32,000 bases of DNA. It comes from Crocosphaera subtropica ATCC 51142. GTDB lineage: Bacteria > Cyanobacteriota > Cyanobacteriia > Cyanobacteriales > Microcystaceae. The notes beneath the pieces are model-generated. The model did no database searches, was not told the origin of the DNA, and saw nothing but the letters and a program-made list of their open reading frames with translations. How positions within the stretch are numbered: position 1 is the stretch's first letter; each line of letters begins with the position of its first letter. The position numbers and the translations under genes are program-made. The stretch lies in contig NC_010546.1 of assembly GCF_000017845.1 (NCBI RefSeq), forward strand, positions 240,001 through 272,000, read 5' to 3'. Below are positions 4,183 through 30,298 of the stretch, one piece after another.

Positions 4183-4374
4183 AAGAATAACTTTTAACCC
4201 GTGTAAAAGGACTTATAATAGCATAAAATTACTAACACAACTATAATCACTTTATACAAGGGTTGCTTATTTTCTTTTAAATTGTCCAGATGACAAGCAA
4301 CTTTTAGAATAAAAGAGAAAATTTTGGAATAAGTGGGTATAATTTATAAGACAAATGACGACCTTTAATATCTC

Positions 4375-6120: not shown

Positions 6121-6137
6121 TTGTTAACTTAAACATT

Positions 6138-7172
6138 ATGTCTTATCCTTCAATTTCAATTATTATTCCAAGTTATCGACGAGAACAAATTTTAAAAGAT
6201 ACTTTAGAGGATGTTCTTAAACAGGATTATCCTCATTTTGAAATTCTGGTTGTTGATCAAACAGCAAGTCATGATCCTACGATTCAAAGTTATTTAGAAA
6301 ATTTAGCTAACACCAATAAAATTAAATGGTTTCGTGTTAGTTGGGCAAGTTTACCAGCAGCTAGAAATTATGGGGTTCGTCGTTCTCAAGGAGACATTAT
6401 TATTTTTATTGATGATGATGTTCAATTACCAGCTAATTACTTATATAGTCATACAAAAATCTATCAAGAAAAATCAGAAATTGGAGCCGTGGCAGGGAGA
6501 GTTTTAGATAGAATGAAATTGGCTGATGCTGAAAAAATTAATGATTCTGAAGACCCTTATACCATAGAAATGTTACCTCCAGAAGCAATGGACCCTGGTA
6601 TTGCCTGGTATTATATTGATTTGGTTCATACGACCAAACCTCAAGAAGTCATCTCAACTCGCGGTTGTAATATGTCTTTTCGACGAGAAGTTTTTACGAA
6701 ATATAATGTTTGGTTTGATGAAAGATTTAGAGGAAATGCCGTTAGAGAAGAGTCAGATTTTTGTTTACGTTTACGCCAAACTGGTTATAAAATTTGGTAT
6801 GAACCTGATGCTTATTTAGTTCATTTAGGAGAAGAAACGGGGGGGTGTCATGATATGAGTACCCGTTCTTTTTCCTATCAAATGACTTTCTATCATAACC
6901 ATTTTTTAATGGCATTAAAAAACTTAACTTTTTTAGAACAGTTACGATTATATACTAAACTATTTGATTGTCATGTTTTGGGTAATCCTCCTTGTAATAA
7001 AGGGGGTTCTCCAATTAAAATTTTAGTTCGTTTATTGTTCTATACTTTAGGCTTTATAGATGCTATAAGAACAATAATTATATCTCAATGGAATGATGGA
7101 CAAATTTATAGTAAAAATGATATAAATTACCATCAATTACAGTCGAATAAGTCCTTAGAATCGGTTTCTTGA
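6138..7172 (+). CDS. family 2 glycosyltransferase (GT-A)
   Basis: 344-aa ORF. The N-terminal ISIIIPSYRREQIL..., the ARNYG motif and the DDD motif (IIFIDDDV) are typical of GT2. It starts 17 nt after the upstream gene. Confidence 0.8.
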   Translation: MSYPSISIIIPSYRREQILKDTLEDVLKQDYPHFEILVVDQTASHDPTIQSYLENLANTNKIKWFRVSWASLPAARNYGVRRSQGDIIIFIDDDVQLPANYLYSHTKIYQEKSEIGAVAGRVLDRMKLADAEKINDSEDPYTIEMLPPEAMDPGIAWYYIDLVHTTKPQEVISTRGCNMSFRREVFTKYNVWFDERFRGNAVREESDFCLRLRQTGYKIWYEPDAYLVHLGEETGGCHDMSTRSFSYQMTFYHNHFLMALKNLTFLEQLRLYTKLFDCHVLGNPPCNKGGSPIKILVRLLFYTLGFIDAIRTIIISQWNDGQIYSKNDINYHQLQSNKSLESVS

Positions 7173-7204
7173 GTATTGAATATATATCAGATTAATTATT
7201 AATC

Positions 7205-8377
7205 ATGAAAATTTTAGTAGCCAGTCATACCTATATTGTTGACCTTAATTGTGAAAAATTCAAAACTTTAGCACAACTAGATCCTAATCTTGAAGTTACT
7301 ATTATTGTGCCGCAAAAATGGAAACCAGGAGGCGTTCAGAATAAAATAATTGAAAAACAACCTCGGTTTGAAGGGAATTTTAAAGTTATTCCTATTTATA
7401 ATTTTAGCCAAAATAATCAGGGATTATTAACTTTTGGTACGGATATTATTAAACTATTAAACGAATTTAAACCACAAATTATACAAGTAGAACAAGGAGT
7501 TAAATCTTTTGCTTATGCTCAATTGATTACTCTCAATAAATGGTTAAATTTAAAAGCTAAAAATGTGTTTTTCACCTGGTGGAATCTTCCCTATGAATCA
7601 AAGTTTCCTGTTTCCTATCTAGAACAATATAACTTAAAAAATACTGATGGATTAGTGGCAGGGAATCAAGATGCTGCTGATATTTTACGAGATCACGGTT
7701 ATAATAAAGCAGTAGCAGTTATGCCCCAATTAGGAGTCGATGAGGTTTTATTTTCACCACAAAAACAACCAGAATTAGCTCAAAAATTAGGTATTAAAAA
7801 GCAAGATTTTGTTATTGGTTTTGTTGGTAGATTCGTAGAAGAAAAAGGTATTTTGACTCTTTTGAAAGCAGTTCAAGCTTTACCTGAAAAAAATTGGAAA
7901 CTTTTATTATTGGGAAGAGGAGAACTTCAAGCCAAAATTATTCAAGAAAGTAAAGATGTTAAGATTGAAGATAAATTAATAATGCTTGAAAGTGTAGCTC
8001 ATGATCAAGTTCCTCAATATATTAACTTGATGAATGTTTTAGTTTTACCGTCAGAAACTACCTATCAATTTAAAACCTTAACGGCTGTGGGTTGGAAAGA
8101 ACAATTTGGTCATGTTTTAATTGAAGCTATGGCCTGTAAAGTACCAGTCATTGGTTCAGATTCTGGAGAAATACCTAATGTTATTAGTGATGCTGGTTTG
8201 ATTTTTCCTGAAGGAGATTCTACAGAATTGAAAAACTGTTTAAGTCAATTGATGTTAGATCCTGCTTTGGCTGATAAACTAGCTGAAAAAGGTTATAGAA
8301 GAGTATTAGAAAATTATACGAATAAAGCTTTAGCTGAAAAAACATTAACCTTTTACCAATCACTTAGTGATAAGTGA
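7205..8377 (+). CDS. family 4 glycosyltransferase (GT-B, GT1/GT4 clan)
   Basis: 390-aa ORF. The C-terminal half has GFVGRFVEEKGI...LLLLGRGE... and the EQFGHVLIEAMACKVPVIGSDSGEIP (E-x7-E-like) motif typical of GT4. Confidence 0.8.
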   Translation: MKILVASHTYIVDLNCEKFKTLAQLDPNLEVTIIVPQKWKPGGVQNKIIEKQPRFEGNFKVIPIYNFSQNNQGLLTFGTDIIKLLNEFKPQIIQVEQGVKSFAYAQLITLNKWLNLKAKNVFFTWWNLPYESKFPVSYLEQYNLKNTDGLVAGNQDAADILRDHGYNKAVAVMPQLGVDEVLFSPQKQPELAQKLGIKKQDFVIGFVGRFVEEKGILTLLKAVQALPEKNWKLLLLGRGELQAKIIQESKDVKIEDKLIMLESVAHDQVPQYINLMNVLVLPSETTYQFKTLTAVGWKEQFGHVLIEAMACKVPVIGSDSGEIPNVISDAGLIFPEGDSTELKNCLSQLMLDPALADKLAEKGYRRVLENYTNKALAEKTLTFYQSLSDK

Positions 8378-14579: not shown

Positions 14580-15563
14580 TTAAGCAGATTCAGGTAAAAC
14601 CCAGTCCATTTCAAGAGAAGGTTTTTTGGGTTGATGACAATAAGCAATTAATCCACAAAGGAGGTTCACACAAAAATTGACAGGACTACGATGGCGAGAA
14701 TGTTCGATTTGAGAGATATTCTTTAATTGGTCAATAATTGTCTCAATAATCGAGCGTTTACGTGATAAAAGCTTATCGTGAAGTCCCATGAGTTTATTCT
14801 TCATATTGCGTCTCGGTTTAGCAAAAAACTCAATTCCCAAATTGTCTAAAAGCTCTGAAGCTAATTTCTGGGAGACATAGCCTCGGTCAGCAAAAATTTT
14901 GCCAAAAAGCCCTTCAACAAGTTCTAGGACGGGGTTGCGGTCATCGACATTACCAGCAGTAATGCTGACGTTAAGCAATTCTCCTTGCTCATTAACCACT
15001 AAATGCAGCTTAAAGCCAAAAAACCAATCTACTGAAGTTTTACCGCGTGCAGCTAGACCATCAAACACTTTATGCCTTGAAATCCGTCGATTATGACAAA
15101 CTCCCGACCCACCTGGATTTAAAATCCAGGTGGAAAGCGGGAGTGCATTCCGCACTTTGATGCTCGTAGAATCGAGAAAACTGATCCCACTGCATTGCCC
15201 AAAACAATGTTTGAGATAGACACACAAAGGAATTAGGGTCGAAGGCATCCATTCAATAAATCGTTGATAACTAGGTAAATGGGGAAATTCCGCACGAAAA
15301 TGACAACAAACTTCCTCAAGATAATAATGTTTGAAGTTACGATAGTGATTAGCGTGAAAAACAATTAAAATTGTCATAATCTCACTTAAACATAAGCATT
15401 TCCTTCGTTGACGAGTTTGAAAACCATGAGAAATTAATTGTTTATGCCACAATGGTTCAAAAGTTTGGCAAAAGTCATCTACATGGCAAAATGCGGAGCG
15501 AACTGTTCCGAGGTTCCCTCGGAACCAGCATGCGCACCAAGATAAAGCATCTATACTAAACAT
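14580..15563 (-). CDS. IS982-family DDE transposase (carries an 18-aa in-frame insertion)
   Basis: 327-aa ORF. The motifs are those I associate with IS982-type transposases: [32 protein letters not shown]...[71 protein letters not shown]. The stop codon lies inside the left IR. Confidence 0.8.
15100..15144. repeat. nested perfect-stem palindrome inserted in frame within the transposase gene
   Basis: The outer arms are ACTCCCG (15100-15106) and CGGGAGT (15138-15144). The inner arms are CCACCTGGATTT (15109-15120) and AAATCCAGGTGG (15122-15133). The region encodes [18 protein letters not shown], placed between IKV and CHNRRI. Confidence 0.7.
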
Positions 15564-18995: not shown

Positions 18996-19277
18996 TGATC
19001 CACTTTTTTTTGTATATTTTTATGAAATCAAAATATACTTTTATAATGTTTTGTGAAGATAAATAACAGGTTATTAAATAAGTGTAAATTACTGAATGAT
19101 CTCAAAAGAGATTGTGGAAGAGGGATTTTACGGTAGAAAAATCCAGTAAAATAGGAAAGGGTAACAGTGAGTCATTACCTAAAGCTAGAGAGTAACCCTC
19201 ATTGTATCAAGTTAACCTCTAATAATTAGAGTGATAGAGACTTATCGAGCCAATTATCTTTCTATTAATAAAAATTT

Positions 19278-19826
19278 ATGTCTAAGGCCAAACTTTTACA
19301 GCCTGATTTAATTTTAGGGGATACGATTCTTGGTTTAAGCCAGGAAGTTCTGGATCATTATCGCATTAAGGGATTAATTTTAGATGTGGATGAAACCCTA
19401 GTTCCCCTCAAAAAAGCCCATGTTTCTGAGGATTTAAGACAGTGGGTCGATCAAATTCGGCAGAAAACTCCTATTTGGCTAGTTAGTAATAATCTCAGTG
19501 AAAGTCGTATTGGTCGGATCGCCAACTCTTTGGAGTTACCCTATTTATTAGGGGCAGTCAAACCCTCTCGACGGAAACTGAAAAAGGCGATTCGTGCTAT
19601 GGAATTGCCCATTCCTCAAGTAGCGATGGTGGGCGATCGCTTATTTACCGATGTTTTAGCAGGAAACCGTATGGGAATGTTTACCATTTTGGTCAAACCG
19701 ATGGTTGATCCTGCGATCGCAGCCCGTTCCTATCCGATCCATAATTTTGAAGTGTGGATTTCTGAGAAACTGGGCATTTCTCTGCTGTCTTCGCAACAAA
19801 AGTTCACAAAAAGACATAAAAGGTAA
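19278..19826 (+). CDS. YqeG-family HAD superfamily (subfamily IIIA) phosphatase
   Basis: 182-aa ORF. HAD motif I is LDVDETLVP, motif II is VSNN, and motifs III/IV are K...GDRLFTDVLAGNRMG. The size and layout match the YqeG family. Confidence 0.75.
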   Translation: MSKAKLLQPDLILGDTILGLSQEVLDHYRIKGLILDVDETLVPLKKAHVSEDLRQWVDQIRQKTPIWLVSNNLSESRIGRIANSLELPYLLGAVKPSRRKLKKAIRAMELPIPQVAMVGDRLFTDVLAGNRMGMFTILVKPMVDPAIAARSYPIHNFEVWISEKLGISLLSSQQKFTKRHKR

Positions 19827-19872
19827 AAAAAGAAAACAAAAAAAGTATGAGGAGTCGGAAGACAAAACTCAA

Positions 19873-20154
19873 TTATGAAGGAACAGATTCTTGAACTTCT
19901 CTGGTGTAGGGGCTATGAATTTGAGCATAATAATCGAGAATGTCTAAAAGTCGCTGTTTTTCTAAAGAAGAAAGGCTAGAAGGATAACCTATTTCTAAAT
20001 GATCAATTTGACTTTGATCATAATTAAACTGTTGAGACTGTTGAGGAATCAACGCAATGGTAACCCCTTCAATTTGACGTAAATGAGCAGCTAATTCTCG
20101 ATAAACGGCCAAGGGTAAATGAGGATAAGTAATTTTTTCTTGTGTATGTGCCAC
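19873..20154 (-). CDS. hypothetical protein (93 aa)
   Basis: The ORF starts 26 nt downstream of the lipoprotein gene on the same strand. It has coding-like composition. No family recognised. Confidence 0.45.
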   Translation of the reverse strand: MAHTQEKITYPHLPLAVYRELAAHLRQIEGVTIALIPQQSQQFNYDQSQIDHLEIGYPSSLSSLEKQRLLDILDYYAQIHSPYTREVQESVPS

Positions 20155-20180
20155 TATTTTTACTTATTTTAACTAATGTT

Positions 20181-21314
20181 TTAAGACCAATCAGTTAAGG
20201 TGATTCTTACGTCTTCTTTGTTACGACCTCGAAGACCCAGTTCTGACTTTTGACTTTGATCATTTGCCCCTACACGGCCATCAAATTCAGCTTGAGTCCC
20301 AGGGCTTAATGTATAAGTTGCAGCTAGTTCAACTTTCATGCTGTTAATAATTTTGTTGGTTCCTTTTTCTGCAATTTGTAAGGTAAGAGTAGAAACTTTC
20401 AATGTTTCATTTCCATCATTACATAATGTGCCGTTAATTAAGGGATTAGCTGTATCTTCTCCTGTTAGCTGAACTTGTTGTAACATTAAATCCCTAATAA
20501 TTCCAAAACCATCGGGTCCGGGTGCTTGAACCGCAGAGCCTGACGAAGCAACTGCTTGAGAAGGACCGGGAGTCGGTGGATCAACTGGTTCTTCTGCCGG
20601 TTCTCCTACCCCACGAGGAATTTCTAACCCATACTGTTCTAAGACGATATAAGGGCGTTGGCTACTAGCATTGATAGCTTTGACCTTGACTTGTCCATTA
20701 GAGAGACTTCCCCCAACTCTTACCTGACGAGCGACGTTTTCATTAGGGGCTTTAACAATGGCGACAGGGGTTCCATTAAGTTGCATGACTCCTGATACCA
20801 CAACTCCTCTTGCTTCGTTAGGAATGGGTAAAACAGGAGCAAGCAAAGGAGCCGGTCCTATATCCGATACAGGGGTTCCTGTTCCTGGAGCTTGAGCTAC
20901 AGTGGCGATGGGTCTTTGCTCCAAGGTACATAGTTTTTCTGGTTGAGAAACGCCATTTTGGGCAACGTTTTGAGTAGAACCATTTGACCCCGTTGTTTGC
21001 CGAACAACTGGTTGAATCGGAATGACGGAAAAGGGATTATCCCGTCCTGTCTGAATATTTTTCCGACGTTCACTTGGGGTAGTGGAGGGGATTAATCCTT
21101 CGGTGGCTGATACTTGAGGGGGAGTCGGAGTGGGGGTGGTTTCTTCAAAGACTTCCCCTGGCTTTTCCTCGGAAGTTTCAGGAGGTTGGGGAGACTCAGC
21201 TACGGGTGATTCTTCTGATGGTTCTTGAGAACCTTGAAAAAGGCCGCATCCTCCCAACGTAAGAGCTATATAACTCAGCAATAGCATTGATGGAACTTTT
21301 TTGATCATGACCAA
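20181..21314 (-). CDS. lipoprotein with Pro-rich linkers and beta-rich domains (first resembles PilP/GspC-type)
   Basis: 377-aa ORF. It has a signal peptide plus lipobox (IALTLGG-C). A Pro/Glu/Thr-rich spacer is followed by GVVVSGVMQLNGTPVAIVKAPNENVARQVRVGGSLSNGQVKVKAINASSQRPYIVLEQYG, which fits the L.L.G....g...A.v......v..Gd.l..g.v.v..I....v.l...G pattern. A second Pro-rich linker and a second beta-rich domain follow. Confidence 0.55.
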   Translation of the reverse strand: MVMIKKVPSMLLLSYIALTLGGCGLFQGSQEPSEESPVAESPQPPETSEEKPGEVFEETTPTPTPPQVSATEGLIPSTTPSERRKNIQTGRDNPFSVIPIQPVVRQTTGSNGSTQNVAQNGVSQPEKLCTLEQRPIATVAQAPGTGTPVSDIGPAPLLAPVLPIPNEARGVVVSGVMQLNGTPVAIVKAPNENVARQVRVGGSLSNGQVKVKAINASSQRPYIVLEQYGLEIPRGVGEPAEEPVDPPTPGPSQAVASSGSAVQAPGPDGFGIIRDLMLQQVQLTGEDTANPLINGTLCNDGNETLKVSTLTLQIAEKGTNKIINSMKVELAATYTLSPGTQAEFDGRVGANDQSQKSELGLRGRNKEDVRITLTDWS

Positions 21315-21468
21315 AAGAAATTGATTCAGTTGATTACTCTACAATCTTAACTTGATTCTCTGAGAAAGTTGATGACCTACGATTAAGGTGAATAATCAGA
21401 TGAAATCTCTTTGAATACGATACTTGAGAGTAGGGTAAGTAGGGGGGCAGAGGGTGTAGATATTATCT

Positions 21469-22797
21469 TCATTGGTGACATAACCACATCTGGGCAGTTC
21501 TTGGGTTCATCGATAAAGTACAACGATCGCCCCCAAGCCTCATTTGACGATGGCTAATTAAATCCTCATAGGAACTGGATTTTAATCCCCAAGTGTTAAA
21601 CTCAACCGAGGTATCATAACCAGCTTTATTAATAGCAACGATTCCATTCTCTCCTCGTCGAAAGACTAACAGCAAATCGCTGTCGTATAAGATCGTCATG
21701 GGATTTCCATGAACTGCATTGTGAAATTTGATCATCGCCTTAATATCTTCTCGTTGAAAAGCGTCAAACCATCGATCACGATCTTTAGAATAAGTGTGAG
21801 CGGATTCGTTATGATCGGAGTAGATTAAAGGAAGTCCTCCATCTCTGCCTAAAATATAGACATAAGCTAAATGTTCATCCGTTGGATCAAGTAACCAACC
21901 GCGAAAATCCTTATTATGAGGGATATCATGATTAACGACAAAGGTAACAGCCCTATCCCAAGGTAATGCATTATTTTCGGCTTCAGGATGGGCTAATTTT
22001 CTCAGGGAACCCCCAAAGCCAAAGGCTTCTCGAATCGTTTGAAACAAAGGAAAATCATAGGCAGATATCCAGGTTTCCCGAAGGAAAGGGTCTAAAAAAA
22101 TATTTTCCTCGCAATCACTCCCAGTTAAGACTTCCCCAAAGAAGTAGCTTCCGGCTAAGGACTCACTATCCGCAAAATTATCAATCATGCGCTCACTCAA
22201 GTGCTTAATTGCATCAATGCGGAATCCATCAAATCCCATTGCTGCTAAAGCGATTAACATGGTTCTTTGTTGTGATAATACCCAGGGCGAGTCCATTAAG
22301 TCTGGCAAATTATTGTAATCCCCATAAATCACCCGATCCCGATCGCACCATTGGTCACGTTCAATATTTCCGCCTCGATTAAAGTCAAAAGGTGAAAATA
22401 ATCCCACACTTAAATCCCCATACAAGCGATTCGCTTCAAATAAGGCTTGATTCTTTCGATAATTAGCGAGTTCAGCCTCTCCTGGAAAATTTAAACGATC
22501 TGGCCGAGTTTCATTAGCCATGTGATTGATAATAATATCAGCATAGACTTTCAGTTTCGGCTCTATGGTATGACACTGTTCAATCAATTCTTTAAGTTCT
22601 TGTTTTCCTCCTAGATGAGAGAGAACCACTCGGTAATCTTTGGGTTGATAACATTGCCACCAGTCATGACCCTTGACATCTGAATAGATAGGTGGAGGAA
22701 TCAGCAATGCACCGTACCCTGCATCCCGTATTTCTCCGAGTCGATTAATAATTTCTTGATATTGCCAATTGAAGACATGAAGTACAACATCACGCAT
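21469..22797 (-). CDS. cytoplasmic GH13 alpha-amylase-family glycoside hydrolase
   Basis: All four GH13 conserved regions are present: DIIINH (I), GFRIDAIKH (II, nucleophile Asp), FFGEVL (III, acid/base Glu), FVVNHD (IV). There is no signal peptide. I placed the start at M16 of the track ORF because GAAGGAGG lies 8 nt upstream of that ATG (22795-22797). Confidence 0.85.
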   Translation of the reverse strand: MRDVVLHVFNWQYQEIINRLGEIRDAGYGALLIPPPIYSDVKGHDWWQCYQPKDYRVVLSHLGGKQELKELIEQCHTIEPKLKVYADIIINHMANETRPDRLNFPGEAELANYRKNQALFEANRLYGDLSVGLFSPFDFNRGGNIERDQWCDRDRVIYGDYNNLPDLMDSPWVLSQQRTMLIALAAMGFDGFRIDAIKHLSERMIDNFADSESLAGSYFFGEVLTGSDCEENIFLDPFLRETWISAYDFPLFQTIREAFGFGGSLRKLAHPEAENNALPWDRAVTFVVNHDIPHNKDFRGWLLDPTDEHLAYVYILGRDGGLPLIYSDHNESAHTYSKDRDRWFDAFQREDIKAMIKFHNAVHGNPMTILYDSDLLLVFRRGENGIVAINKAGYDTSVEFNTWGLKSSSYEDLISHRQMRLGGDRCTLSMNPRTAQMWLCHQ

Positions 22798-22890
22798 GAC
22801 ATTTTCCTCCTTCACAAACATCCCAACTGAGCGATCCCTCAAAGATTACCCAGTGTGGGATTGTGTGACCGTAACGTAAAGGATGGGTAA

Positions 22891-23406
22891 TTATTGAGCT
22901 AAGGCAAGGGATTTTAATTCCTGATTAATGGCATCTGTTAAAAAGGTGTGAACCCCTTCGGCTGTGAGTAGAGAATCAGGGTTTCCGGGAACAGACATCC
23001 GAACATTGCCTGTAATATTGGCAACGGCTAAATTCAATGGTTTGTCCTGGGTTTCTCCTAATACTTGACGGGCTGCTTTGGCCACGGTATTAACTAAAGC
23101 ATCTTGGTGTTTTTCAGCTAGTGCATTTTCTAGAAGAAAGATATCAAACCGTCCAAATATTTCGCTGTTTTTGGGTTGTTTTCCAGCAACAATTGCTTTA
23201 AATTCTTCGCTATAAACCCAAACCCAACCAGGGGCAAAACGTCCAATAACTTCTTTGGCGATCGCTTCATTTTTGGTACCTAAAAAGCCTAACTGTTCGG
23301 CAAAACTTTCTTTGAGTTGCTCAACCACTAATTCTGTGATTCTCATAGCAAGTTTATCAGCTAAGGAGGGGGAATAGGGGTAAATTCGACTTTCGATTAA
23401 TGGCAT
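22891..23406 (-). CDS. hypothetical protein, tautomerase-superfamily-like (N-terminal Pro1, two beta-alpha-beta halves)
   Basis: 171-aa ORF beginning MPLIESRIYPYSPSLADKLAMRITELVVEQL. This matches the 4-OT-like pattern of Met-Pro, a beta-strand, then a helix. A second similar unit lies around LNLAVANITGNVRM. AAGGAG is 10 nt upstream of the ATG. The functional call is tentative. Confidence 0.4.
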   Translation of the reverse strand: MPLIESRIYPYSPSLADKLAMRITELVVEQLKESFAEQLGFLGTKNEAIAKEVIGRFAPGWVWVYSEEFKAIVAGKQPKNSEIFGRFDIFLLENALAEKHQDALVNTVAKAARQVLGETQDKPLNLAVANITGNVRMSVPGNPDSLLTAEGVHTFLTDAINQELKSLALAQ

Positions 23407-23447
23407 AATTCGTTATCTCCTTTTTCTAGTTTCAAGAATGAATCGAA

Positions 23448-24023
23448 TTAAGTATTCACTAAGTTAAGTAAGTCCTCTGAGGCAAAAACATCTCGATAGA
23501 AGGTGAGTTGTTCCGTTTTTAAATAAACTCCCCCTTGATGTCCTCGTCTTAAAAAGGTCACATTTCCTTTAGCAATAGTTTCATGGGTAATATCGTCTAA
23601 ACACTGCCATTCAAAATAGACAACATCCCCTTTAAACATAACAATTGGCCAAGTCATTGTTACCCCTGGTTGAGCAATAATAGCCCACCAATGTTGTTCC
23701 CTTTCTGTGCCAGCATTTTTGCCATAAAAAGGACCGTCTTGACAGAAATATACTAATTCATCTCGATATTCTCCACTTAATAAATCGCCTCTTCCTTGAC
23801 GAAGTGCTTCACAATGAGTCGGCCACCATTGCTTATTTTCTTCCTCTATTTGCTTTTCGGTATATTGAGGAGTAATAGAAGGCAGTTCCCCTTGTTGAAG
23901 GCTAATATAATATTGGGCTAATTCGATGAGGTTAGCTCTTTTTTTCTGAGGAACTAATCCAGGTTGGGAGTAATCTGCTGATAATTCAGCGTAGTAGTTT
24001 TTCTTATTAACTAAGACTTGCAT
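23448..24023 (-). CDS. NTF2/SnoaL-like fold protein
   Basis: The C-terminal ~120 aa (WWPTHCEALRQGRGDLLSGEYRDELVYFCQDGPFYGKNAGTEREQHWWA...VMFKGDVVYFEWQC...GNVTFLRRGHQGGVYLKTEQLTFYRD) fit the SnoaL-like alpha+beta cone pattern. I chose the start at M21 of the track ORF (ATG 24021-24023), 9 nt after AGGAGA. It overlaps the stop of the upstream 903-aa gene by 17 nt. M19 (24029) is an alternative start. Confidence 0.5.
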   Translation of the reverse strand: MQVLVNKKNYYAELSADYSQPGLVPQKKRANLIELAQYYISLQQGELPSITPQYTEKQIEEENKQWWPTHCEALRQGRGDLLSGEYRDELVYFCQDGPFYGKNAGTEREQHWWAIIAQPGVTMTWPIVMFKGDVVYFEWQCLDDITHETIAKGNVTFLRRGHQGGVYLKTEQLTFYRDVFASEDLLNLVNT

Positions 24024-26718
24024 ACTCATCACTCTCCTTTGGTAAAGTAGTTTGAAAGTGGGATATTCCATAGGGGGAGTCATCTGTAGCTATTTTTTCC
24101 AATTCTCGTAAATAAACTTTCATGAATTCTTCAACAACTCCAGGATGTTTTGCTGTAATTAAATCCCCATCAACATAAGTGTTAACGGTTCCTCCACTGT
24201 TCTGATAAATAACTTCTGCACCACTGTTTTTAACATCATCAATAATATTATGGGCGCAGGTAACTTTCTTGCCTCGTAACAAGGTTTTATCAGGGGTTAA
24301 TAGCCATAAAGAATGGCAAATGGTTCCTAATTTAAGTCCTTTAATTTGACTAATTTTTCGGATTAAATTAAGGGCAGGTGCTTGATTATCTTGATGGGAT
24401 TGGGGATTATCTTCATAGCGCAATCGATCCATTGCATATCCTCCTACTAAGATAAATCCTTTGAAGTCTGAGGGATTCACTTGATCAACATCACAACGCA
24501 CTCGCAATGGATCTAAATGTTCATTTCCAGTAAACTCCAACACAGGATTATTCCAGAGTCGTGAAATATATACAATTTCATAACCATGTTTTGGGAAAAA
24601 CTGAGAAAATGCCTGAATTTCTGTTTCGTCAAAATGGCTTTCAACTAACACCCCAATTTTCCCTTTCTTTTCTGTTTTTTCTACAAATTCTTGGCGATTA
24701 TCCATTGTTAAAGGTTGAAATTCAACAACTATTTCTGATCCAAAATCGTCAGGACCTAATTCGATCTGGAAGTTATCAGGATCGACGGTTGATCGTTCAA
24801 CTCCGTTAATAGTAATTCGTTGAATTTGGACAGCATTAGGAGGGAAAAAGTCAGGCAAAACATTGAGGGTTGTTTGTGTTAATTGACTATCGGGTTTAAA
24901 GAACAAGCAAAATGACTTATTACGAACATAAGTCATTAAATAAAGATGCGTAAGAAAACAGAGTTCAAACACATGATAACCAGAAATAGAGGGATCGGCT
25001 TTTTTTCCATAACGACCAGTAATGACAGGGCTTCCATTATCATTAACTCGAAAATAAACTCCGCCCCGATCTCGATCTAGGAAGAAAATATTCCAAAATG
25101 CCATCATTTCCTGAGCTAATTCTAGATATAATTGATTCCTAGTTTTGCCATACAAAATTAAGTAAGCAAGAATCCCCTGTTCTTGTTGCCAAAAGTCTTT
25201 AGTATTTAACCAAGGATATTCTCGAATCATGCCATTTTTAGGGTGACGTTCTAAAGCATCAAAACAGCCTCCTCGGAAGGTATCAATTGCCCCAACTTTC
25301 ACCATATTTTGTGCTATTCTCTCTGCAAGTTGAAGCAAAGCATAAGAAAATGACTGCTCTTTTGGCTGACTTGAATAATAATTAGAAACCCTAGTTAAAT
25401 TCCAAGCAATTTTTAGATTATGACCCACAATTCCTCGATCTTGTTGCCAATCCCAGTGAGTATCAGGTTCCCATCTTGGATAGAATCTTTCCTGGACAAA
25501 ATCATTATTTTTTTCAGGAAATTTCTCTGCTATTAAGGTAGCAGTTTCTTTAAGAATTTCTTTACAGCTATTGAGAAATTCTCTAATTTGTTCCGTATGC
25601 TTATTAAGGGGAAGTGGCTCTAAAGCTAAAATTAGATTGACTAAATAAGCTGGAATATGATCCCCAATTGAATTCCAATTTTTACGAGGTTGCTGAGGGT
25701 TATTCTGGTAAACTTTGACTTCTTTGAGAAGGATTGGATCATTAACGGGCCAGGTTTTAGGTTTTAGGGTAGCTGGATCAAGGTGACTAAAAAATCCACC
25801 GAATTCTGATGAGTCATGGAAATATTTAATAAAGGTATTAACCGTACGACGAATATCATCTAAAGTTTCCCATTCTAAAGTAACTCGATAGTATTGTATG
25901 AGTCCGGCTAAGGCATAAATTTGTTCGTAAAGCGGAATAGTTCCTCGTCCTAAAGGTTCATCACTTTCTGAAGGGATAATAAGTTGATTATCTCGTTTCC
26001 CATAAGCCCAGAAACAATATCGACCATCATGGGTTAAACTCCGAAAATACTCTCTTTGGTAATTAACGCCGGCTGTTGCTGCATCTAAAAACCGTTGACT
26101 ACCTGTTAATAAATAGGCAGAAGATAATCCATAAATTAATCTCGATAACGTAGCCATTTCCTGAATATTATCTTGAGTTGGTCCAAAAGTAATATTCAAA
26201 TTCGTTCGGTATTTTGAAAAATTATATCGTCCGTGGCCGTCATATAGTGTATCTAACCAAACATCAGCTAAGCGAGACATTTGAGTGACCCACCAATGGG
26301 TACTTTCAAACAAAAAATGGCCTTGATAATCAATTGTTTGTCCATTTTGATCGTAAAGTAAGTGAATGGTTTTAGCATCTATTCTTTTTGACAGTCCATT
26401 TTGAAGCAATACCCCTTCAACTACGACTAATCGACCAACATTAAGGTATTTACTTGTTTTCTCTATTGGGTTTAGGTCTGGATCGGAACGAGTGCCAAAT
26501 TCTTCTAAATTTCCGTAACGATTACGGTTAATATTATCTAAATTAGAAAGGCTTTGAAAGTTAGTTGTTGAGGTTACATAGATATAAAATTCATCTCCAC
26601 TACGACAACGAATTTTAAAATCAATTCCTTTACCATTTAGATTACTTTGATGGGTAACATCTTCTAACCGTTCAATAACCCTACCCATCAAGGTTACTTG
26701 GTTACAAAAACCTCTCAT
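24007..26718 (-). CDS. three-domain fusion protein: OB-fold-like N-domain, AGE-family (alpha/alpha)6 barrel, C-terminal DJ-1/PfpI domain
   Basis: 903-aa ORF with GGAG 8 nt upstream of the ATG.
- aa 1-125: NQVTLMGRVIERLE...GRLVVVEGVLLQNG...IDAKTIHLL resembles the SSB-type OB strand pattern.
- aa ~135-600: repeated helical-hairpin motifs typical of N-acylglucosamine/cellobiose 2-epimerase-like six-hairpin proteins (LSRLIYGLSSAYLLTG, LYEQIYALAGLIQYY, GHNLKIAWNL, EQGILAYLILY).
- aa ~685-875: DJ-1/PfpI, with KIGVLVESHFDETE, FILVGGYA, and a nucleophile elbow GTICHSLWLL (Cys801 codon at 24316-24318). Confidence 0.65.
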   Translation of the reverse strand: MRGFCNQVTLMGRVIERLEDVTHQSNLNGKGIDFKIRCRSGDEFYIYVTSTTNFQSLSNLDNINRNRYGNLEEFGTRSDPDLNPIEKTSKYLNVGRLVVVEGVLLQNGLSKRIDAKTIHLLYDQNGQTIDYQGHFLFESTHWWVTQMSRLADVWLDTLYDGHGRYNFSKYRTNLNITFGPTQDNIQEMATLSRLIYGLSSAYLLTGSQRFLDAATAGVNYQREYFRSLTHDGRYCFWAYGKRDNQLIIPSESDEPLGRGTIPLYEQIYALAGLIQYYRVTLEWETLDDIRRTVNTFIKYFHDSSEFGGFFSHLDPATLKPKTWPVNDPILLKEVKVYQNNPQQPRKNWNSIGDHIPAYLVNLILALEPLPLNKHTEQIREFLNSCKEILKETATLIAEKFPEKNNDFVQERFYPRWEPDTHWDWQQDRGIVGHNLKIAWNLTRVSNYYSSQPKEQSFSYALLQLAERIAQNMVKVGAIDTFRGGCFDALERHPKNGMIREYPWLNTKDFWQQEQGILAYLILYGKTRNQLYLELAQEMMAFWNIFFLDRDRGGVYFRVNDNGSPVITGRYGKKADPSISGYHVFELCFLTHLYLMTYVRNKSFCLFFKPDSQLTQTTLNVLPDFFPPNAVQIQRITINGVERSTVDPDNFQIELGPDDFGSEIVVEFQPLTMDNRQEFVEKTEKKGKIGVLVESHFDETEIQAFSQFFPKHGYEIVYISRLWNNPVLEFTGNEHLDPLRVRCDVDQVNPSDFKGFILVGGYAMDRLRYEDNPQSHQDNQAPALNLIRKISQIKGLKLGTICHSLWLLTPDKTLLRGKKVTCAHNIIDDVKNSGAEVIYQNSGGTVNTYVDGDLITAKHPGVVEEFMKVYLRELEKIATDDSPYGISHFQTTLPKESDEYASLS

Positions 26719-27053
26719 TTCTCTTCTCCTGCATTCAACGAATGTAGCGACTTGTTGTTAGTAATCTCAAGAGAATATAAACTTTGATCTTTGACGAAAT
26801 TAACTATACTTTATTAGTAACATATCTCTAATAAATAAGCAGAAATACTGATACAAATATTTACAGGATAGGTTGAACTGATACCAATTCTCTTGATTAA
26901 CAATAGAGATTATGAGTTGAGGTAAGCAGAGAAAGCAGGGGAGGCAGGAGGAGATAAAGGAAAAAGAATATTAATTAAGTCTCTAGCTATTTTTGAAAAT
27001 TGGTATAACATTTTTTTATCCATTTAGTATCAATTGTGATACCTAACTTCCCA

Positions 27054-28226
27054 TCATTGATTAAGACGATAACGTTGATGATAAGACAGTAACGGCTTAC
27101 CATCGGGATCATAGCCACTTCCATCCCAATAGAACCAATGAATATTTTGTTCAGGCAGGGCTAAGGAGATATCGTTTCCATTTTTCTTGTTTCCATCATC
27201 TTTAAGTAAAGCTCGAATCACTAAGTCTGATTGGTCGATTTGAACACTGATTAAACTTTCTTTACCTAATTCTTCGACTAATTTAATTTGACCGTGAATC
27301 ACTAAAGCATCCCCTTCTGTTGCCTCATGGATGTCTTCGGGACGAATCCCTAAAACGATGTGTTTAAGACCTGGAGACTCACCCTCTACCTCTGGAATAT
27401 TTTCAGGAGCAATACTGGTTAACGGAATCCCAAATTGACCTAAAATAGCCTTATTATTCTGACATTCTAATTCGAGCAAATTCATCTGAGGGCTGCCCAC
27501 AAACCCGGCTACAAATTGATTCGCAGGATATTGATAAATTTCACGGGGAGAAGCCAGTTGTTGAATTTCACCAGCAAATAAAACCGCCACTTTATCAGAA
27601 AGGGTCATGGCCTCAGTTTGGTCATGGGTGACATAAACGACTGGTTTATTTTGTTCGGTAAAAATTTGTTTGAGTTCGGCTCTTACTTGTTCTCTTAAGA
27701 GGGCATCTAAGTTACTTAAGGGTTCATCTAATAAGAAAACCTCAGGATTTCTCACTAAGGCACGGGCTAAAGCCACTCTTTGCCGTTGTCCCCCTGAGAG
27801 TTTTCCTGGTTTTTCGGGTAAGCAGTCTTTACCTTCTTGGAGTTTGAGTTGTTTGGCTGCTGTTTGAATCCGTTGATCAATTTCCTCTTCTGAAAGATTA
27901 CGAATTTTTAGGGCTGTGGCGATATTTTCTTTGGCCGTCATGTGAGGATAGAGGGCATAACTTTGGAAAACCATGGCAATATTGCGATCGCCGGGAGCAA
28001 TATTAGTGACTTTTTTCTCGCCAATGAAAATGTCTCCTTTTGTTGGTGGTTCTAACCCTGCAATCAATCTCAAAAGGGTTGATTTACCACAGCCAGAGGG
28101 ACCGAGTAAGGTTAAAAATTCTCCATCTTCAACCTCGACATTGCTAATTCCTTTAACAACATCGAGGGTTTTTCCTTGATCAATTTGATATTGTTTTGTT
28201 AAGTTTTCTAGTCTTAACTTAGCCAT
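27054..28226 (-). CDS. carbohydrate-type ABC transporter ATP-binding protein (MalK/UgpC/GgtA-like)
   Basis: 390-aa ORF. Walker A is GPSGCGKST, with a Q-loop, signature LSGGQRQRVALARAL, Walker B FLLDEPLSNLD, and an H-loop VTHDQ. A C-terminal MalK-like regulatory (TOBE-type) domain follows. No permease or binding-protein gene is adjacent. Confidence 0.9.
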   Translation of the reverse strand: MAKLRLENLTKQYQIDQGKTLDVVKGISNVEVEDGEFLTLLGPSGCGKSTLLRLIAGLEPPTKGDIFIGEKKVTNIAPGDRNIAMVFQSYALYPHMTAKENIATALKIRNLSEEEIDQRIQTAAKQLKLQEGKDCLPEKPGKLSGGQRQRVALARALVRNPEVFLLDEPLSNLDALLREQVRAELKQIFTEQNKPVVYVTHDQTEAMTLSDKVAVLFAGEIQQLASPREIYQYPANQFVAGFVGSPQMNLLELECQNNKAILGQFGIPLTSIAPENIPEVEGESPGLKHIVLGIRPEDIHEATEGDALVIHGQIKLVEELGKESLISVQIDQSDLVIRALLKDDGNKKNGNDISLALPEQNIHWFYWDGSGYDPDGKPLLSYHQRYRLNQ

Positions 28227-28282
28227 TCTCTTTTTTCTGTTGAGTCTTTAGCACGTTCCTTTTCTGATAGTAGAATAACACT

Positions 28283-30298
28283 TTATTCATCGCTATCTTT
28301 GGCTGAGGAACGACGACGGCGACGACGAATGACTGGTTTAGTTCCTTCGTCTTGAGAAGCAGAGGTGAAATCGCTTTCGTTCTCATCGTCATTATCATTA
28401 TCGGTTTCTATCCCTTCTTCTATGGCTTGGGATTCAGTGGCAGTAGGGTCCATATCAGTTAAATCAATCACCATTTGCTGTTCTTCGCTGGTGGGGGTTT
28501 GGGTTTCTGGGGTCGTTGCTGATGTTTTTTCTATGGTTTTTCTTTCTATGCCCTCTGGTGATTTCACCGATACCACCACCGATTTGGGGTCTTTAAATTC
28601 TTTGTCGACACGAACCAAGGGAGAAATCCCCATTAAAGCGTAAACATCTTGTTCTAGGGGAGTCATTTCGACAGAAACCCTTTCTACTGGACCTTCTTCT
28701 CGGCGTAAATGTCTGGGAAGTCTTTCTCTACGATTGTCATTACCCGATTCATTATTATTATCGTCTGTTTCTTTGATCCCGACATTACTACTTGATTTAG
28801 TAGAATCTTCTTTAATGACGAGATTGGGGGTTTGACGACGACGGCGACGACGGTTATTAGCGTTACTATTTTGCTCTTGATAACTGGGATGGTGTAACAA
28901 TTCTAATTGATCGGAATTATCGCTATCCTCATCTTCAAAGGGAGAATCCCAACCACTGTCATTGACTTCTAGGGGTTTTTCGATTGGTTTAGGGGTGACG
29001 GGGGTGGGGGCTGGAACGGGAAGGGGAGTGGTAGCGGCCGATTCGAGAGCGACTAATTGAGATTCCCCTGGAAGATGGGCTAAATGGCCTAAGCCACCAC
29101 ATTGGGGACAGGGTTGACCAAATAACTCATAAATGTTTTTACCCTGGCGTTTACGGGTTAATTCCACTAATCCCAGTTCGGAGAGTTGGGCAATTTGGGG
29201 TCTGGCTTTATCGACTTTGAGCGCTTTGTTGAAATGTTCGAGTAATTTGAGTTGATCTCGTCGGGAGTCCATATCGATAAAATCGACAATAATCACACCC
29301 CCAATATTGCGTAATCGTAACTGACGGGCGATTTCGGTAGCTGCTTCGCTATTAGTCCATAAGACGGTTTCCCGTGAGGTGGCCGAACGGGTAAAGGACC
29401 CTGAGTTGACATCAATGACGGTGAGGGCTTCGGTGGGTTCAATAATAATATAACCCCCAGAAGGCAGGTCTACTCTCGGTTTTAGGGCTTCTCTGACGGC
29501 TGCATTGACTCGGAAATAGTCGAGGATGGACATGGATTCCCGATGATGATCAATTAACACTCCTTCGGGAGGCCGTCCCCCACTCCAGTTCATTAAATGA
29601 TGTTTAACTCGTTTAACACCGGAAGGGTTATCCACCACAATACGGTTGACATCTGCGCTGTACATATCCCGTAATACCCGTTGAATAAAGTCGTCATCAC
29701 GGTTTAGGAGGGACGGGGCGCGGGTTGAGGTAGCTTGAACTTGAATCGACTCCCATTGCCGTTGTAAAAATTCTAAGTCCTCCATGATTGCTTCTTCGGC
29801 TTTGCCTTCTGCTTCGGTTCGCACTAATAAGCCCATTCCGGCTGGTTTAATCAGGATGGCTAAAGCCCGTAAGCGACTGCGTTCATCATCGTTGCGAATA
29901 CGCCGAGATAGGTTAACCCCTTTGCCGTTGGGCATCAACACTAAGTAGCGTCCAGGAAGGCTAATATTGCCGGTTAATCTCGGACCTTTGTTACCGGTAG
30001 GTTCTTTCATCACCTGAACCAGCACTTTTTGTTGTGGCGTTAGAAGTTCTGTGATAGCACCGGCACTGCGTTTGAGGCGCAAGGGTCCTAAGTCGGTGAC
30101 GTGGATAAAGCCGTTTCGTTCTGCGTCCCCAATGTTAACAAAGGCAGCATCAATACCTGGGATGACGTTTTCAACGACCCCTAAAAAAATGTCGCTGACT
30201 TGTTGGTTTCCTGTGGCAACCACTAATTCTTGTATTTGATCTTCCCAAAATACGGCAGCAATGTGGTGTTGTTCTGCGATAATAATTTGTTTTGGCAT
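28283..30298 (-). CDS. rne: ribonuclease E (cyanobacterial RNase E/G family)
   Basis: 671-aa ORF. It has an S1 domain (GVVENVIPGIDAAFVNIG), catalytic motifs IDVNSGSF and IIVDFIDM, and a Zn-link CPQCGG. The C-terminal region is non-catalytic, with Arg-rich blocks including RRRRRRSSA (28301-28327). As I recall, that nonapeptide is the conserved PNPase-binding motif of cyanobacterial RNase E. Confidence 0.9.
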   Translation of the reverse strand: MPKQIIIAEQHHIAAVFWEDQIQELVVATGNQQVSDIFLGVVENVIPGIDAAFVNIGDAERNGFIHVTDLGPLRLKRSAGAITELLTPQQKVLVQVMKEPTGNKGPRLTGNISLPGRYLVLMPNGKGVNLSRRIRNDDERSRLRALAILIKPAGMGLLVRTEAEGKAEEAIMEDLEFLQRQWESIQVQATSTRAPSLLNRDDDFIQRVLRDMYSADVNRIVVDNPSGVKRVKHHLMNWSGGRPPEGVLIDHHRESMSILDYFRVNAAVREALKPRVDLPSGGYIIIEPTEALTVIDVNSGSFTRSATSRETVLWTNSEAATEIARQLRLRNIGGVIIVDFIDMDSRRDQLKLLEHFNKALKVDKARPQIAQLSELGLVELTRKRQGKNIYELFGQPCPQCGGLGHLAHLPGESQLVALESAATTPLPVPAPTPVTPKPIEKPLEVNDSGWDSPFEDEDSDNSDQLELLHHPSYQEQNSNANNRRRRRRQTPNLVIKEDSTKSSSNVGIKETDDNNNESGNDNRRERLPRHLRREEGPVERVSVEMTPLEQDVYALMGISPLVRVDKEFKDPKSVVVSVKSPEGIERKTIEKTSATTPETQTPTSEEQQMVIDLTDMDPTATESQAIEEGIETDNDNDDENESDFTSASQDEGTKPVIRRRRRRSSAKDSDE

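Follow-up and report, generated by a model that had tools for sequence, protein, structure and literature searches.

A conserved gene module of Crocosphaera subtropica linking an AGE-like/DJ-1 fusion protein to a GH13 enzyme, and its predicted kinship with the icfG operon

Introduction

Why would a cyanobacterium keep an epimerase-like barrel, a DJ-1-type domain, two small proteins and an amylase-type enzyme in a single tight row of genes? The question is raised by a locus of Crocosphaera subtropica (Cyanothece) ATCC 51142 that lies in a stretch of 32,000 nucleotides (nt) of its genome (NC_010546.1, positions 240,001 to 272,000; hereafter the window, whose own numbering is used below). Four genes, all on the minus strand, are tightly packed there. 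The first, cce_0274 (24007..26718), encodes a protein of 903 amino acids (aa) that joins a barrel of the N-acylglucosamine 2-epimerase (AGE) type to a DJ-1/PfpI-type domain; its product is 100% identical to the entry 'hypothetical protein cce_0274'. It is followed by a 191-aa gene (by position cce_0273; 23448..24023), by the 171-aa gene cce_0272 (22891..23406; product identical to cce_0272) and, downstream of this, by a 442-aa gene of glycoside hydrolase family 13 (GH13; by position cce_0271; 21469..22797).

An earlier note on this DNA, made from the sequence alone, saw in the four genes a candidate undescribed alpha-glucan pathway, with epimerisation, tautomerisation and keto- or anhydro-sugar chemistry as its inference. 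By sequence comparison, the four genes form a conserved unit whose assembly in the window goes beyond chance, and the operon is predicted to be a reduced relative of the enzyme-coding half (slr1852, slr1854, slr1855 and slr1857) of the icfG operon in Synechocystis PCC 6803. The alpha-glucan proposal is supported by synteny and by the link to GH13, and is weakened as to novelty by relatives already listed in the icfG operon.

Conservation of the module and of its core

Every readable neighbourhood of close homologues of the 171-aa protein, in four further metagenomic contexts, holds the same gene set. Two of these contexts (L081/L082 and L088/L089) present the AGE-DJ-1 fusion, the NTF2-like, the tautomerase-like and the GH13 genes in the order of the window, and their flanks are unrelated (a Tn3 transposase and an integrase, a DDE transposase, a caspase-like peptidase). 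In the other two (L083 and L090/L091), AGE and DJ-1 are separate adjacent genes, and the two small genes come in reversed order, then GH13. Such a coexistence of fused and split forms is classically taken to mean that the two parts, AGE-like and DJ-1, act together. The synteny analysis proposed in the earlier note was therefore positive, with the gene set recurring in further genomic contexts between unrelated flanks.

Beyond the complete set, a core triad of AGE-like, DJ-1 and GH13 genes was found in at least seven phyla (Cyanobacteriota, Chloroflexota, Actinomycetota, Deinococcota, Bacteroidota, Pseudomonadota and Myxococcota). Chloroflexi and Rivularia carry AGE and DJ-1 genes (plus a ThiJ-like or ankyrin gene) followed by a GlgB/TreZ-like GH13 gene of 815-835 aa, and a two-gene form consists of an AGE-DJ-1 fusion and a CBM48-GH13 gene separated by a 3-nt gap. 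On a Streptomyces plasmid the triad adjoins glgE and treS, and in Runella, Deinococcus, Gemmobacter and Gloeothece it occurs each time with GlgX. A GH13 gene lies within 3 kb in 27 of the 28 loci that have a complete AGE-like gene and enough flanking sequence, these 28 being drawn from 80 genome loci fetched around homologues of the 191-aa protein.

The GH13 partner itself is not constant. The fusion of L088 is 70% identical to that of the window, whereas its GH13 enzyme shares just 22% identity over 356 aa and carries another C-terminal domain. Overall, at least five subfamilies remote from one another are represented among the partners, including amylase-like, cyclomaltodextrinase-like and GlgB/TreZ-like enzymes and true GlgX above the NCBIfam equivalog cut-off. 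This retention of the GH13 function while the gene itself is replaced suggests that alpha-glucan cleavage is the input of the module.

Elsewhere the triad is accompanied by accessory genes for VOC proteins, a second ThiJ-like protein, thiamine pyrophosphate (TPP) enzymes, GMC oxidoreductases, SnoaL/ester cyclases, EthD proteins and a PF01361 tautomerase. A ThiJ-like 'type 1 glutamine amidotransferase' and a TPP-binding enzyme stand beside AGE/DJ-1 in Nostoc (L096, 9640-14617), Streptomyces (L097, 2637-5170), Deinococcus (L099, 1-5974) and Gemmobacter (L100, 1027-3608). In Competibacteraceae (L093, 10647-16037) the TPP enzyme is present, but of the ThiJ-like gene there is only a weak fragment of 93 aa; L093, L096 and L099 also contain GMC oxidoreductases.

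Several module copies adjoin Tn3-type transposases, DDE transposases or integrases (L081, 714-4778; L088, 774-1430; L089, 5954-6361; L096, 3626-4657), and many relatives are located on plasmids (43 PLSDB records), which suggests that the module has spread horizontally.

The AGE-like/DJ-1 fusion

The product of cce_0274 comprises an N-terminal domain (aa 1 to about 135), an AGE-like (alpha/alpha)6 barrel (about 136-600), a short beta-rich segment (about 601-672) and a DJ-1/PfpI domain (about 684-873). The barrel, encoded by 24919..26313 (minus strand), matches Pfam GlcNAc_2-epim (PF07221) at aa 389-572 (E value 1.7e-10; 41 bits against a cut-off of 23.4 bits), a match that spans only the C-terminal half of the model. 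Matches to PDB profiles were AGE 8bry and cellobiose 2-epimerases (CE).

Seven residues of the barrel are invariant across 17 diverse homologues: R193 (LSRLIYG), H354 (GDHIPAY), H433 and K436 (VGHNLKIAW), E513 and Q514 (FWQQEQ) and H582 (SGYH). R193 aligned to the Arg, and H582 to the C-terminal YH motif, of AGE 5x32, and H433 aligned to H259 of cellobiose 2-epimerase 3wkf. The AGE superfamily is defined by two catalytic His in an (alpha/alpha)6 barrel (PMC13363691); in cce_0274 these two are H433 and H582, as placed by short, low-scoring alignments. The acidic residues of the AGE motifs (GHxxE and WWxxxE) are not kept, K436 and Q514 occupying the aligned places, and the homologue alignment contains many further invariant Asp and Glu as well as several invariant Arg and Lys. 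A weak Pfam match to GH127 (E value 0.005) was also recorded; apart from one weak entry labelled GH73, the barrel profile searches returned no PDB glycosidase. From these sequence features, the barrel of cce_0274 is best described as AGE-type with a predicted altered pocket, and would not be a standard epimerase.

The DJ-1/PfpI-type part (24100..24669, minus strand, from Pfam and alignment) matches DJ-1_PfpI (PF01965) at aa 687-871 with an E value of 4e-16, above the gathering score. It aligned to YhbO 1oi4 and PfpI 8r3n, with the Cys801-His802 nucleophile elbow (TICHSLW) at their ICH motif and with the N-terminal acidic residues also in register. The domain gives an NCBIfam PfpI subfamily match with an E value of 1e-19 but misses the cut-offs of the curated PfpI/YhbO subfamilies, scoring 70 against 139 bits for TIGR01382 and 45 against 330 bits for NF040823.

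Fusions of this kind are also present in eukaryote-derived data, namely a Physarum transcript and a protein placed by UniRef in the green alga Derbesia. One metagenomic contig (L095), with sparse genes and reverse-transcriptase open reading frames, carries the fusion alone.

The GH13 enzyme and the two small proteins

The 442-aa enzyme, assigned by Pfam, NCBIfam and PDB alignment, matches Pfam Alpha-amylase (PF00128) with an E value of 9e-13, above the cut-off, and its C-terminal beta domain (Alpha-amylase_C) scores 20.0 bits, just under the 21.2-bit cut-off. All four conserved regions are present: DIIINH (87-92), GFRIDAIKH (191-199), FFGEVL (219-224) and FVVNHD (286-291). Regions II-IV, with the catalytic Asp-Glu-Asp, aligned to Bacillus subtilis alpha-amylase 3dc0, as did the region I motif. 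The sequence opens directly in the first barrel strand; it therefore has no signal peptide and would be cytoplasmic. The enzyme scores far below every NCBIfam equivalog cut-off, and we predict a cytoplasmic alpha-amylase-type activity.

The AlphaFold model of the 171-aa protein (pLDDT 89.6, pTM 0.85) has two beta-alpha-beta repeats. The best Foldseek matches were fused 4-OT Pt0534, Cg10062/cis-CaaD, MIF and CHMI, all with probability 1.0, and the top 50 were almost all of the tautomerase superfamily, the few exceptions being designed protein cages. Pro-1, following the initiator Met (MP start), is kept in all seven full-length close homologues and in 11 of the 13 remoter ones, to which one with an assigned Val start (VP...) can be added. 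The confident model thus points to a two-repeat tautomerase-superfamily fold with an N-terminal Pro-1. Pfam and NCBIfam, including PF01361 and PF14552, gave no match at E ≤ 0.01, and the family is tiny (19 representatives among 1.84 billion proteins). In the contexts whose neighbourhood was read, its members always adjoin the NTF2-like gene. A PDB profile likeness to Mn-superoxide dismutase (E value 0.05; aa 28-73, 46 residues, 'GRFxxGWxW'/'GRFGSGWAWL') is probably due to chance, and was set aside because the confident model has a tautomerase fold. In Methylococcaceae and Accumulibacter, a tautomerase-like domain that keeps Pro-1 is fused to hemolysin-type calcium-binding repeats (about 390 aa) directly after the 191-aa homologue (L039, 2345-3523; L059, 10695-11876; L073, 10699-11877).

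The 191-aa protein is extremely conserved, with 922 homologues, of which the 120 best listed are 62-78% identical to it, and with 314 species genomes represented. A 20-member alignment contains 72 invariant columns, including C71, C94, C141, H70 and H162 and many Arg, Asp and Glu. The three Cys and two His look like a metal or redox site, which would be unusual in NTF2/SnoaL proteins. The AlphaFold model is of low confidence (pLDDT 57), the family alignment being poor in diversity (Neff 1.7), and its Foldseek matches are nearly all SnoaL/NTF2 folds with TM 0.3-0.48. One of them, PDB 9mua ('4OT-SnoaL from P. atlanticus'), demonstrates the existence of tautomerase-SnoaL fusions, a parallel to the neighbouring tautomerase-like and NTF2-like genes of the window; literature on such fusions was not found.

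Of the 80 genome loci, 47 encode the 191-aa homologue as the C-terminal part of a protein of about 515 aa with two EthD domains (for example L044, 9008-10561), and in a few the EthD protein has a gene of its own immediately downstream. Nostocales and others encode, within the same cluster, a protein of about 1040 aa with carboxymuconolactone decarboxylase (CMD), two EthD, VOC/glyoxalase, SRPBCC (AtaL-like) and two SnoaL domains (L015, 10718-13858, and about 40 other loci).

Most of the earlier protein assignments were borne out: both Pfam domains of the AGE-barrel/DJ-1 fusion exceed their thresholds, the GH13 motifs were located and aligned to 3dc0 in a protein lacking a signal peptide, and the Pro1 tautomerase-like call agrees with a confident AlphaFold model, Foldseek and a conserved Pro-1. 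The NTF2-like call was only weakly sustained, by the Foldseek matches of a low-confidence model, by weak SnoaL_2 matches in 3 of 20 members and by UniRef names, and profile comparisons were negative. No profile or structure search placed the proteins in a characterised pathway.

Organisation of the operon

The start of the 191-aa gene was taken at M21, which is also the start in the public annotation (191 aa, 100% coverage), and that of the GH13 gene at M16, the ATG preceded by GAAGGAGG. With these starts, the 903-aa and 191-aa genes overlap by 17 nt and the next two junctions are gaps of 41 and 93 nt, so the coordinates agree with the packing reported earlier for the four same-strand genes. 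The strong Shine-Dalgarno sequences described for the three downstream genes can likewise be read in the sequence, all on the minus strand: AGGAGA for the 191-aa gene (24033..24038; 9 nt before the start, within the 3' end of the 903-aa gene), AAGGAG for the 171-aa gene (23417..23422; 10 nt before the start) and GAAGGAGG for the GH13 gene (22806..22813; 8 nt before the start). The 903-aa gene has a ribosome-binding site AGGAG at 26726-26730 (minus strand), 7 nt before its start. Upstream of it lies an AT-rich intergenic region of 335 nt (26719..27053), a probable promoter region, where a scan that was not above shuffled expectation marked two promoter-like sites (26830-26803 and 26770-26741, minus strand). 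A terminator scan, not above chance overall, found no terminator-like site on the coding strand of the three junctions, and no Rfam family matched anywhere in the window.

Relation to the icfG operon

The commonest architecture around the homologues includes the genes for an NTF2-like protein (often C-terminal in an EthD-EthD-NTF2-like protein), CMD, DJ-1, the AGE-like protein, STAS, GlgX, STAS, an RsbW-type kinase and a PP2C phosphatase. In Synechocystis salina (L050) the order is NTF2-like, CMD, DJ-1, AGE, STAS, GlgX, STAS, PP2C and RsbW, in gene-by-gene agreement with the annotations of slr1852-slr1861 in Synechocystis PCC 6803, the numbers being mapped to families through annotation names and gene order and not through the PCC 6803 sequence itself. 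These annotations are, in order, unknown protein, carboxymuconolactone decarboxylase, general stress protein 18, N-acetylglucosamine 2-epimerase, anti-sigma antagonist, isoamylase GlgX, anti-sigma antagonist, IcfG and anti-SigC kinase Slr1861 (PMC8670252, PMC3564720, PMC3726282, PMC12329169). The genes slr1852-slr1862, including GlgX, are reported as one co-regulated operon (PMC8670252); NtcA binds inside the first gene of this icfG operon and glgX slr1857 is induced by nitrogen starvation (PMC5714215), and carbon and glucose metabolism have been connected with the operon's regulators (PMC12329169).

Biochemical work on Slr1852-Slr1855 was not found in the literature, nor were publications joining an epimerase, DJ-1 and a debranching enzyme. 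The module is thus not wholly undescribed, its relatives being listed as the upstream half of the icfG operon without an assigned function, and the underlying chemistry may be new.

A putative route for glycogen-derived sugars and its alternatives

We propose, with moderate confidence for the general model and much less for any specific step, that the module processes glycogen-derived reducing sugars by isomerisation and elimination or tautomerisation, with DJ-1 acting on a carbonyl product. The enzymes would be cytoplasmic and cofactor-independent, and would act on sugars from glycogen or semi-amylopectin. The GH13 enzyme would first cut alpha-1,4 or alpha-1,6 glucan to yield free reducing ends, an outcome that would be common to any GH13 subfamily. 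The AGE-like barrel would then open the reducing-end glucose to an enediol, leading to 2-epimerisation or aldose-ketose isomerisation; AGE-type barrels would in general work on the open-chain reducing sugar in this way, and the Arg and the two catalytic His of AGE and cellobiose 2-epimerase enzymes are all retained here. The NTF2-like and tautomerase-like proteins could carry out subsequent keto-enol or elimination steps, and the DJ-1 cysteine could finally act on the resulting carbonyl or dicarbonyl product. Tautomerase, NTF2/SnoaL, EthD, CMD and VOC proteins would all serve as cofactor-free proton-transfer catalysts, and DJ-1-type cysteines would attack carbonyls. Catalytic residues are retained throughout, namely the GH13 Asp/Glu/Asp, R193, H433 and H582 of the AGE-like barrel, Cys801-His802 of DJ-1 and Pro-1. 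The accessory genes of other phyla (ThiJ-like, TPP, GMC, VOC, SnoaL and PF01361) point towards keto- or dicarbonyl-sugar chemistry.

Several observations weigh against this proposal. K436, which aligned to E262 of cellobiose 2-epimerase 3wkf, and Q514, which aligned to the Glu of the AGE/CE 'WWxxxE' motif, are both invariant in the family, so the chemistry or substrate may differ from those of known AGE enzymes, and H433 and H582 are covered only by short alignments of low score. The NTF2-like and tautomerase-like genes are absent from the Chloroflexi, Rivularia and two-gene triad contexts and are therefore accessory, and a plasmid relative of type A/B in Nostoc ATCC 53789 has no GH13 gene within 6 kb. 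The NTF2/SnoaL-like fold of the 191-aa protein is probable at best, being suggested by UniRef names, by the Foldseek matches of the low-confidence model and by weak Pfam SnoaL_2 matches in 3 of 20 family members (best E value 0.017). The protein itself has no Pfam or NCBIfam match at E ≤ 0.01, a PDB profile search with its family was empty, and hhalign of the family against Pfam-confirmed SnoaL neighbours gave no signal (probability 0.3). Co-transcription of the four genes would follow from their spacing only, and literature searches for the locus tags cce_0271-0274 found no biochemical or expression data.

The most serious alternative, which we consider improbable, is that the DJ-1, NTF2-like, tautomerase-like and AGE-like proteins form a damage-control set for stress or reactive-carbonyl detoxification, merely co-expressed with a glycogen GH13 enzyme. 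Stress-type regulators (STAS/RsbW/RsbU) are embedded in the common form of the cluster, which is also accompanied by VOC, CMD and ABM domains, folds typical of stress responses or detoxification. In the icfG cluster the DJ-1 gene is, by position, slr1854, whose product is annotated as general stress protein 18; ethanol induces slr1853 and slr1854, and butanol also slr1854 (PMC3726282, PMC3564720). However, co-regulation leaves unexplained the AGE-DJ-1 fusion, the 3-nt coupling to GH13 and the retention of GH13 through repeated subfamily replacement, and the AGE-like barrel keeps the catalytic residues of a sugar isomerase.

The replaced glutamates also lend themselves to a second and clearly less probable explanation, in which the barrel would be a six-hairpin glycoside hydrolase, lyase or phosphorylase acting on alpha-glucan together with GH13, and DJ-1 would be a regulatory or scaffold domain. 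Both Glu of the AGE/CE active-site motifs are lost in a barrel with many invariant Asp and Glu elsewhere, the extra N- and C-terminal beta-rich segments resemble the general layout of multi-domain six-hairpin glycosidases, and the weak GH127 match would fit such an enzyme. Yet PF07221 is the only significant family match of the barrel, the AGE Arg and both catalytic His are invariant, and the sole glycosidase among the PDB profile matches is the weak GH73-labelled entry.

That the substrate is an anionic sugar (sulfoquinovose, a sugar phosphate or a sugar acid) instead of neutral glucan fragments appears very unlikely. Sulfoquinovose isomerases of the YihS type are AGE-family enzymes, the invariant Lys436 takes the place of an active-site Glu among several invariant Arg and Lys lining the barrel, and TPP enzymes of the acetolactate-synthase family occur with the triad in some lineages. 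The invariable partner, however, is GH13, including bona fide GlgX above the NCBIfam equivalog cut-off, and no kinase, aldolase, sulfonate exporter or GH31 sulfoquinovosidase was found in the contexts read.

The uninformative promoter and terminator scans would be compatible with a chance juxtaposition of four unrelated, separately transcribed genes, a highly improbable explanation given that the set recurs, between different flanks, in four or more further independent contexts, and given the overlap, short gaps, strong ribosome-binding sites and shared strand. The suggestion that the 903-aa protein might be a relative of GghA, the glucosylglycerol hydrolase, with its partners, can be dismissed almost entirely in spite of the similar size (885 against 903 aa), the sugar link and a MalK/UgpC-type ABC ATPase upstream: GghA (Slr1670) is an 885-aa protein of family GHL5 (PMC5002435) and not AGE plus DJ-1, its orthologue in ATCC 51142 is Cce_3236 at another locus (PMC10873239), neither ggpS nor glpK, the usual neighbours of gghA, is present in the window, and the ABC ATPase is not conserved with the module.

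A bolder form of the proposed sugar-processing route, which we offer tentatively and regard as doubtful, is that the core triad, with NTF2-like, tautomerase, EthD, VOC and TPP accessories, encodes a hitherto unrecognised and nearly cofactor-free branch of glycogen catabolism extending from cyanobacteria to Streptomyces, Deinococcus and Bacteroidota, in which the reducing end of a malto-oligosaccharide would pass through an enediol, elimination and tautomerisation to a keto- or dicarbonyl-sugar resolved by the DJ-1 Cys. If true, such a branch would reproduce with enzymes the chemical 'peeling' of 1,4-glucans, and would give a first biochemical role to the Slr1854-like DJ-1/PfpI-type and Slr1855-like AGE-like proteins beside the icfG genes.

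Bacterial glycogen and starch turnover is deemed well mapped, yet the triad lies beside, or is fused to, glycogen-cleaving enzymes in at least seven phyla. In Synechocystis, its relatives stand in one operon with IcfG and the anti-SigC kinase Slr1861, an operon whose link to carbon and glucose regulation dates from the 1990s. Knowing the reaction would account for the coupling of a DJ-1-type protein to glycogen breakdown, and might bring to light a new sugar product or a step of carbonyl repair. The flow of carbon in diazotrophic Crocosphaera at night or under nitrogen starvation could become clearer as well. With the 171-aa protein, the tautomerase superfamily gains a rare branch that lacks annotation, and the 191-aa protein is among the most conserved uncharacterised proteins of this cluster type.

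Genomic surroundings

A lone MalK/UgpC-type ABC-transporter ATPase gene (390 aa; 27054-28226, minus strand) lies 335 nt upstream of the operon. It was rejected as a module member on account of this gap and of the lack of an orthologue with the module elsewhere. Downstream, on the same strand, are genes for a 377-aa Pro/Ser-rich protein with a lipoprotein-like N-terminus (20181-21314, minus strand) and for a 93-aa protein (19873-20154, minus strand). Neither product has a Pfam or NCBIfam match, and both genes were excluded from the module, since they do not stand beside it elsewhere. The window also contains an IS-type DDE transposase gene (14580-15563, minus strand) and, at 3000-8000, a low-GC stretch (30-36% G+C) with GT2 and GT4 glycosyltransferase genes. 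The remainder is ordinary chromosome, with a LeuA-like gene and genes for a CitMHS transporter, EngA, a photosystem II reaction-centre protein and RNase E.

Comparison with known systems

GghA (Slr1670) resembles the 903-aa protein in being a large cyanobacterial sugar-related protein (885 against 903 aa) and differs from it in family (GHL5) and locus (Cce_3236), the two grounds on which this identity was rejected. The GH13 enzyme aligns with alpha-amylases of the Bacillus subtilis AmyE type and the animal type in its catalytic regions and C-terminal beta domain; unlike them, it has no signal peptide and belongs to a module in which the GH13 subfamily is interchangeable. The 171-aa protein shares beta-alpha-beta repeats, Foldseek probabilities of 1.0 and Pro-1 with the tautomerase superfamily, but is only 9-17% identical to its structural matches, has longer helices and no profile match, and belongs to a family of 19 representatives.

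In relation to the AGE superfamily (N-acylglucosamine 2-epimerase, cellobiose 2-epimerase, mannose isomerase and YihS), the AGE-like part has the PF07221 match and the aligned R193 and two His in common. It differs in its length (about 660 against about 400 aa), its extra N- and C-terminal segments, Lys436 and Gln514 and the linked or fused DJ-1 domain, and its identity to PDB entries is too low for full-length alignment. The DJ-1 domain likewise agrees with DJ-1, PfpI, YhbO and Gsp18 in the PF01965 match, the Cys-His elbow and the N-terminal acidic residues, whereas it falls below the NCBIfam PfpI cut-offs, contains an invariant insertion (MDRLRY...) and forms the C-terminal domain of an AGE-like protein.

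Fungal and algal keto-sugar routes lead from 1,5-anhydrofructose to ascopyrone and microthecin, and through pyranose 2-oxidase to cortalcerone. They resemble the putative route in their glucan or glucose input and in their dehydratase and tautomerase steps, and GMC oxidoreductases occur with the triad in some bacteria. These routes, however, begin with a GH31 glucan lyase or an oxidase, neither of which is in the window, and the four proteins showed no homology to known keto-sugar-route enzymes as far as tested.

The nearest known system would be the icfG operon, slr1852-slr1862. In the window, AGE and DJ-1 are fused, an alpha-amylase-type GH13 gene replaces GlgX and a Pro-1 tautomerase-like gene is added; no CMD, STAS, RsbW-type kinase or IcfG PP2C/Slr1861 regulators are found within 19000-29000, and the AGE-like part is only 35-41% identical to icfG-type AGE proteins. 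What the two operons share is the grouping of an NTF2-like (slr1852), a DJ-1-type (slr1854), an AGE-like (slr1855) and a GH13 (slr1857) gene.

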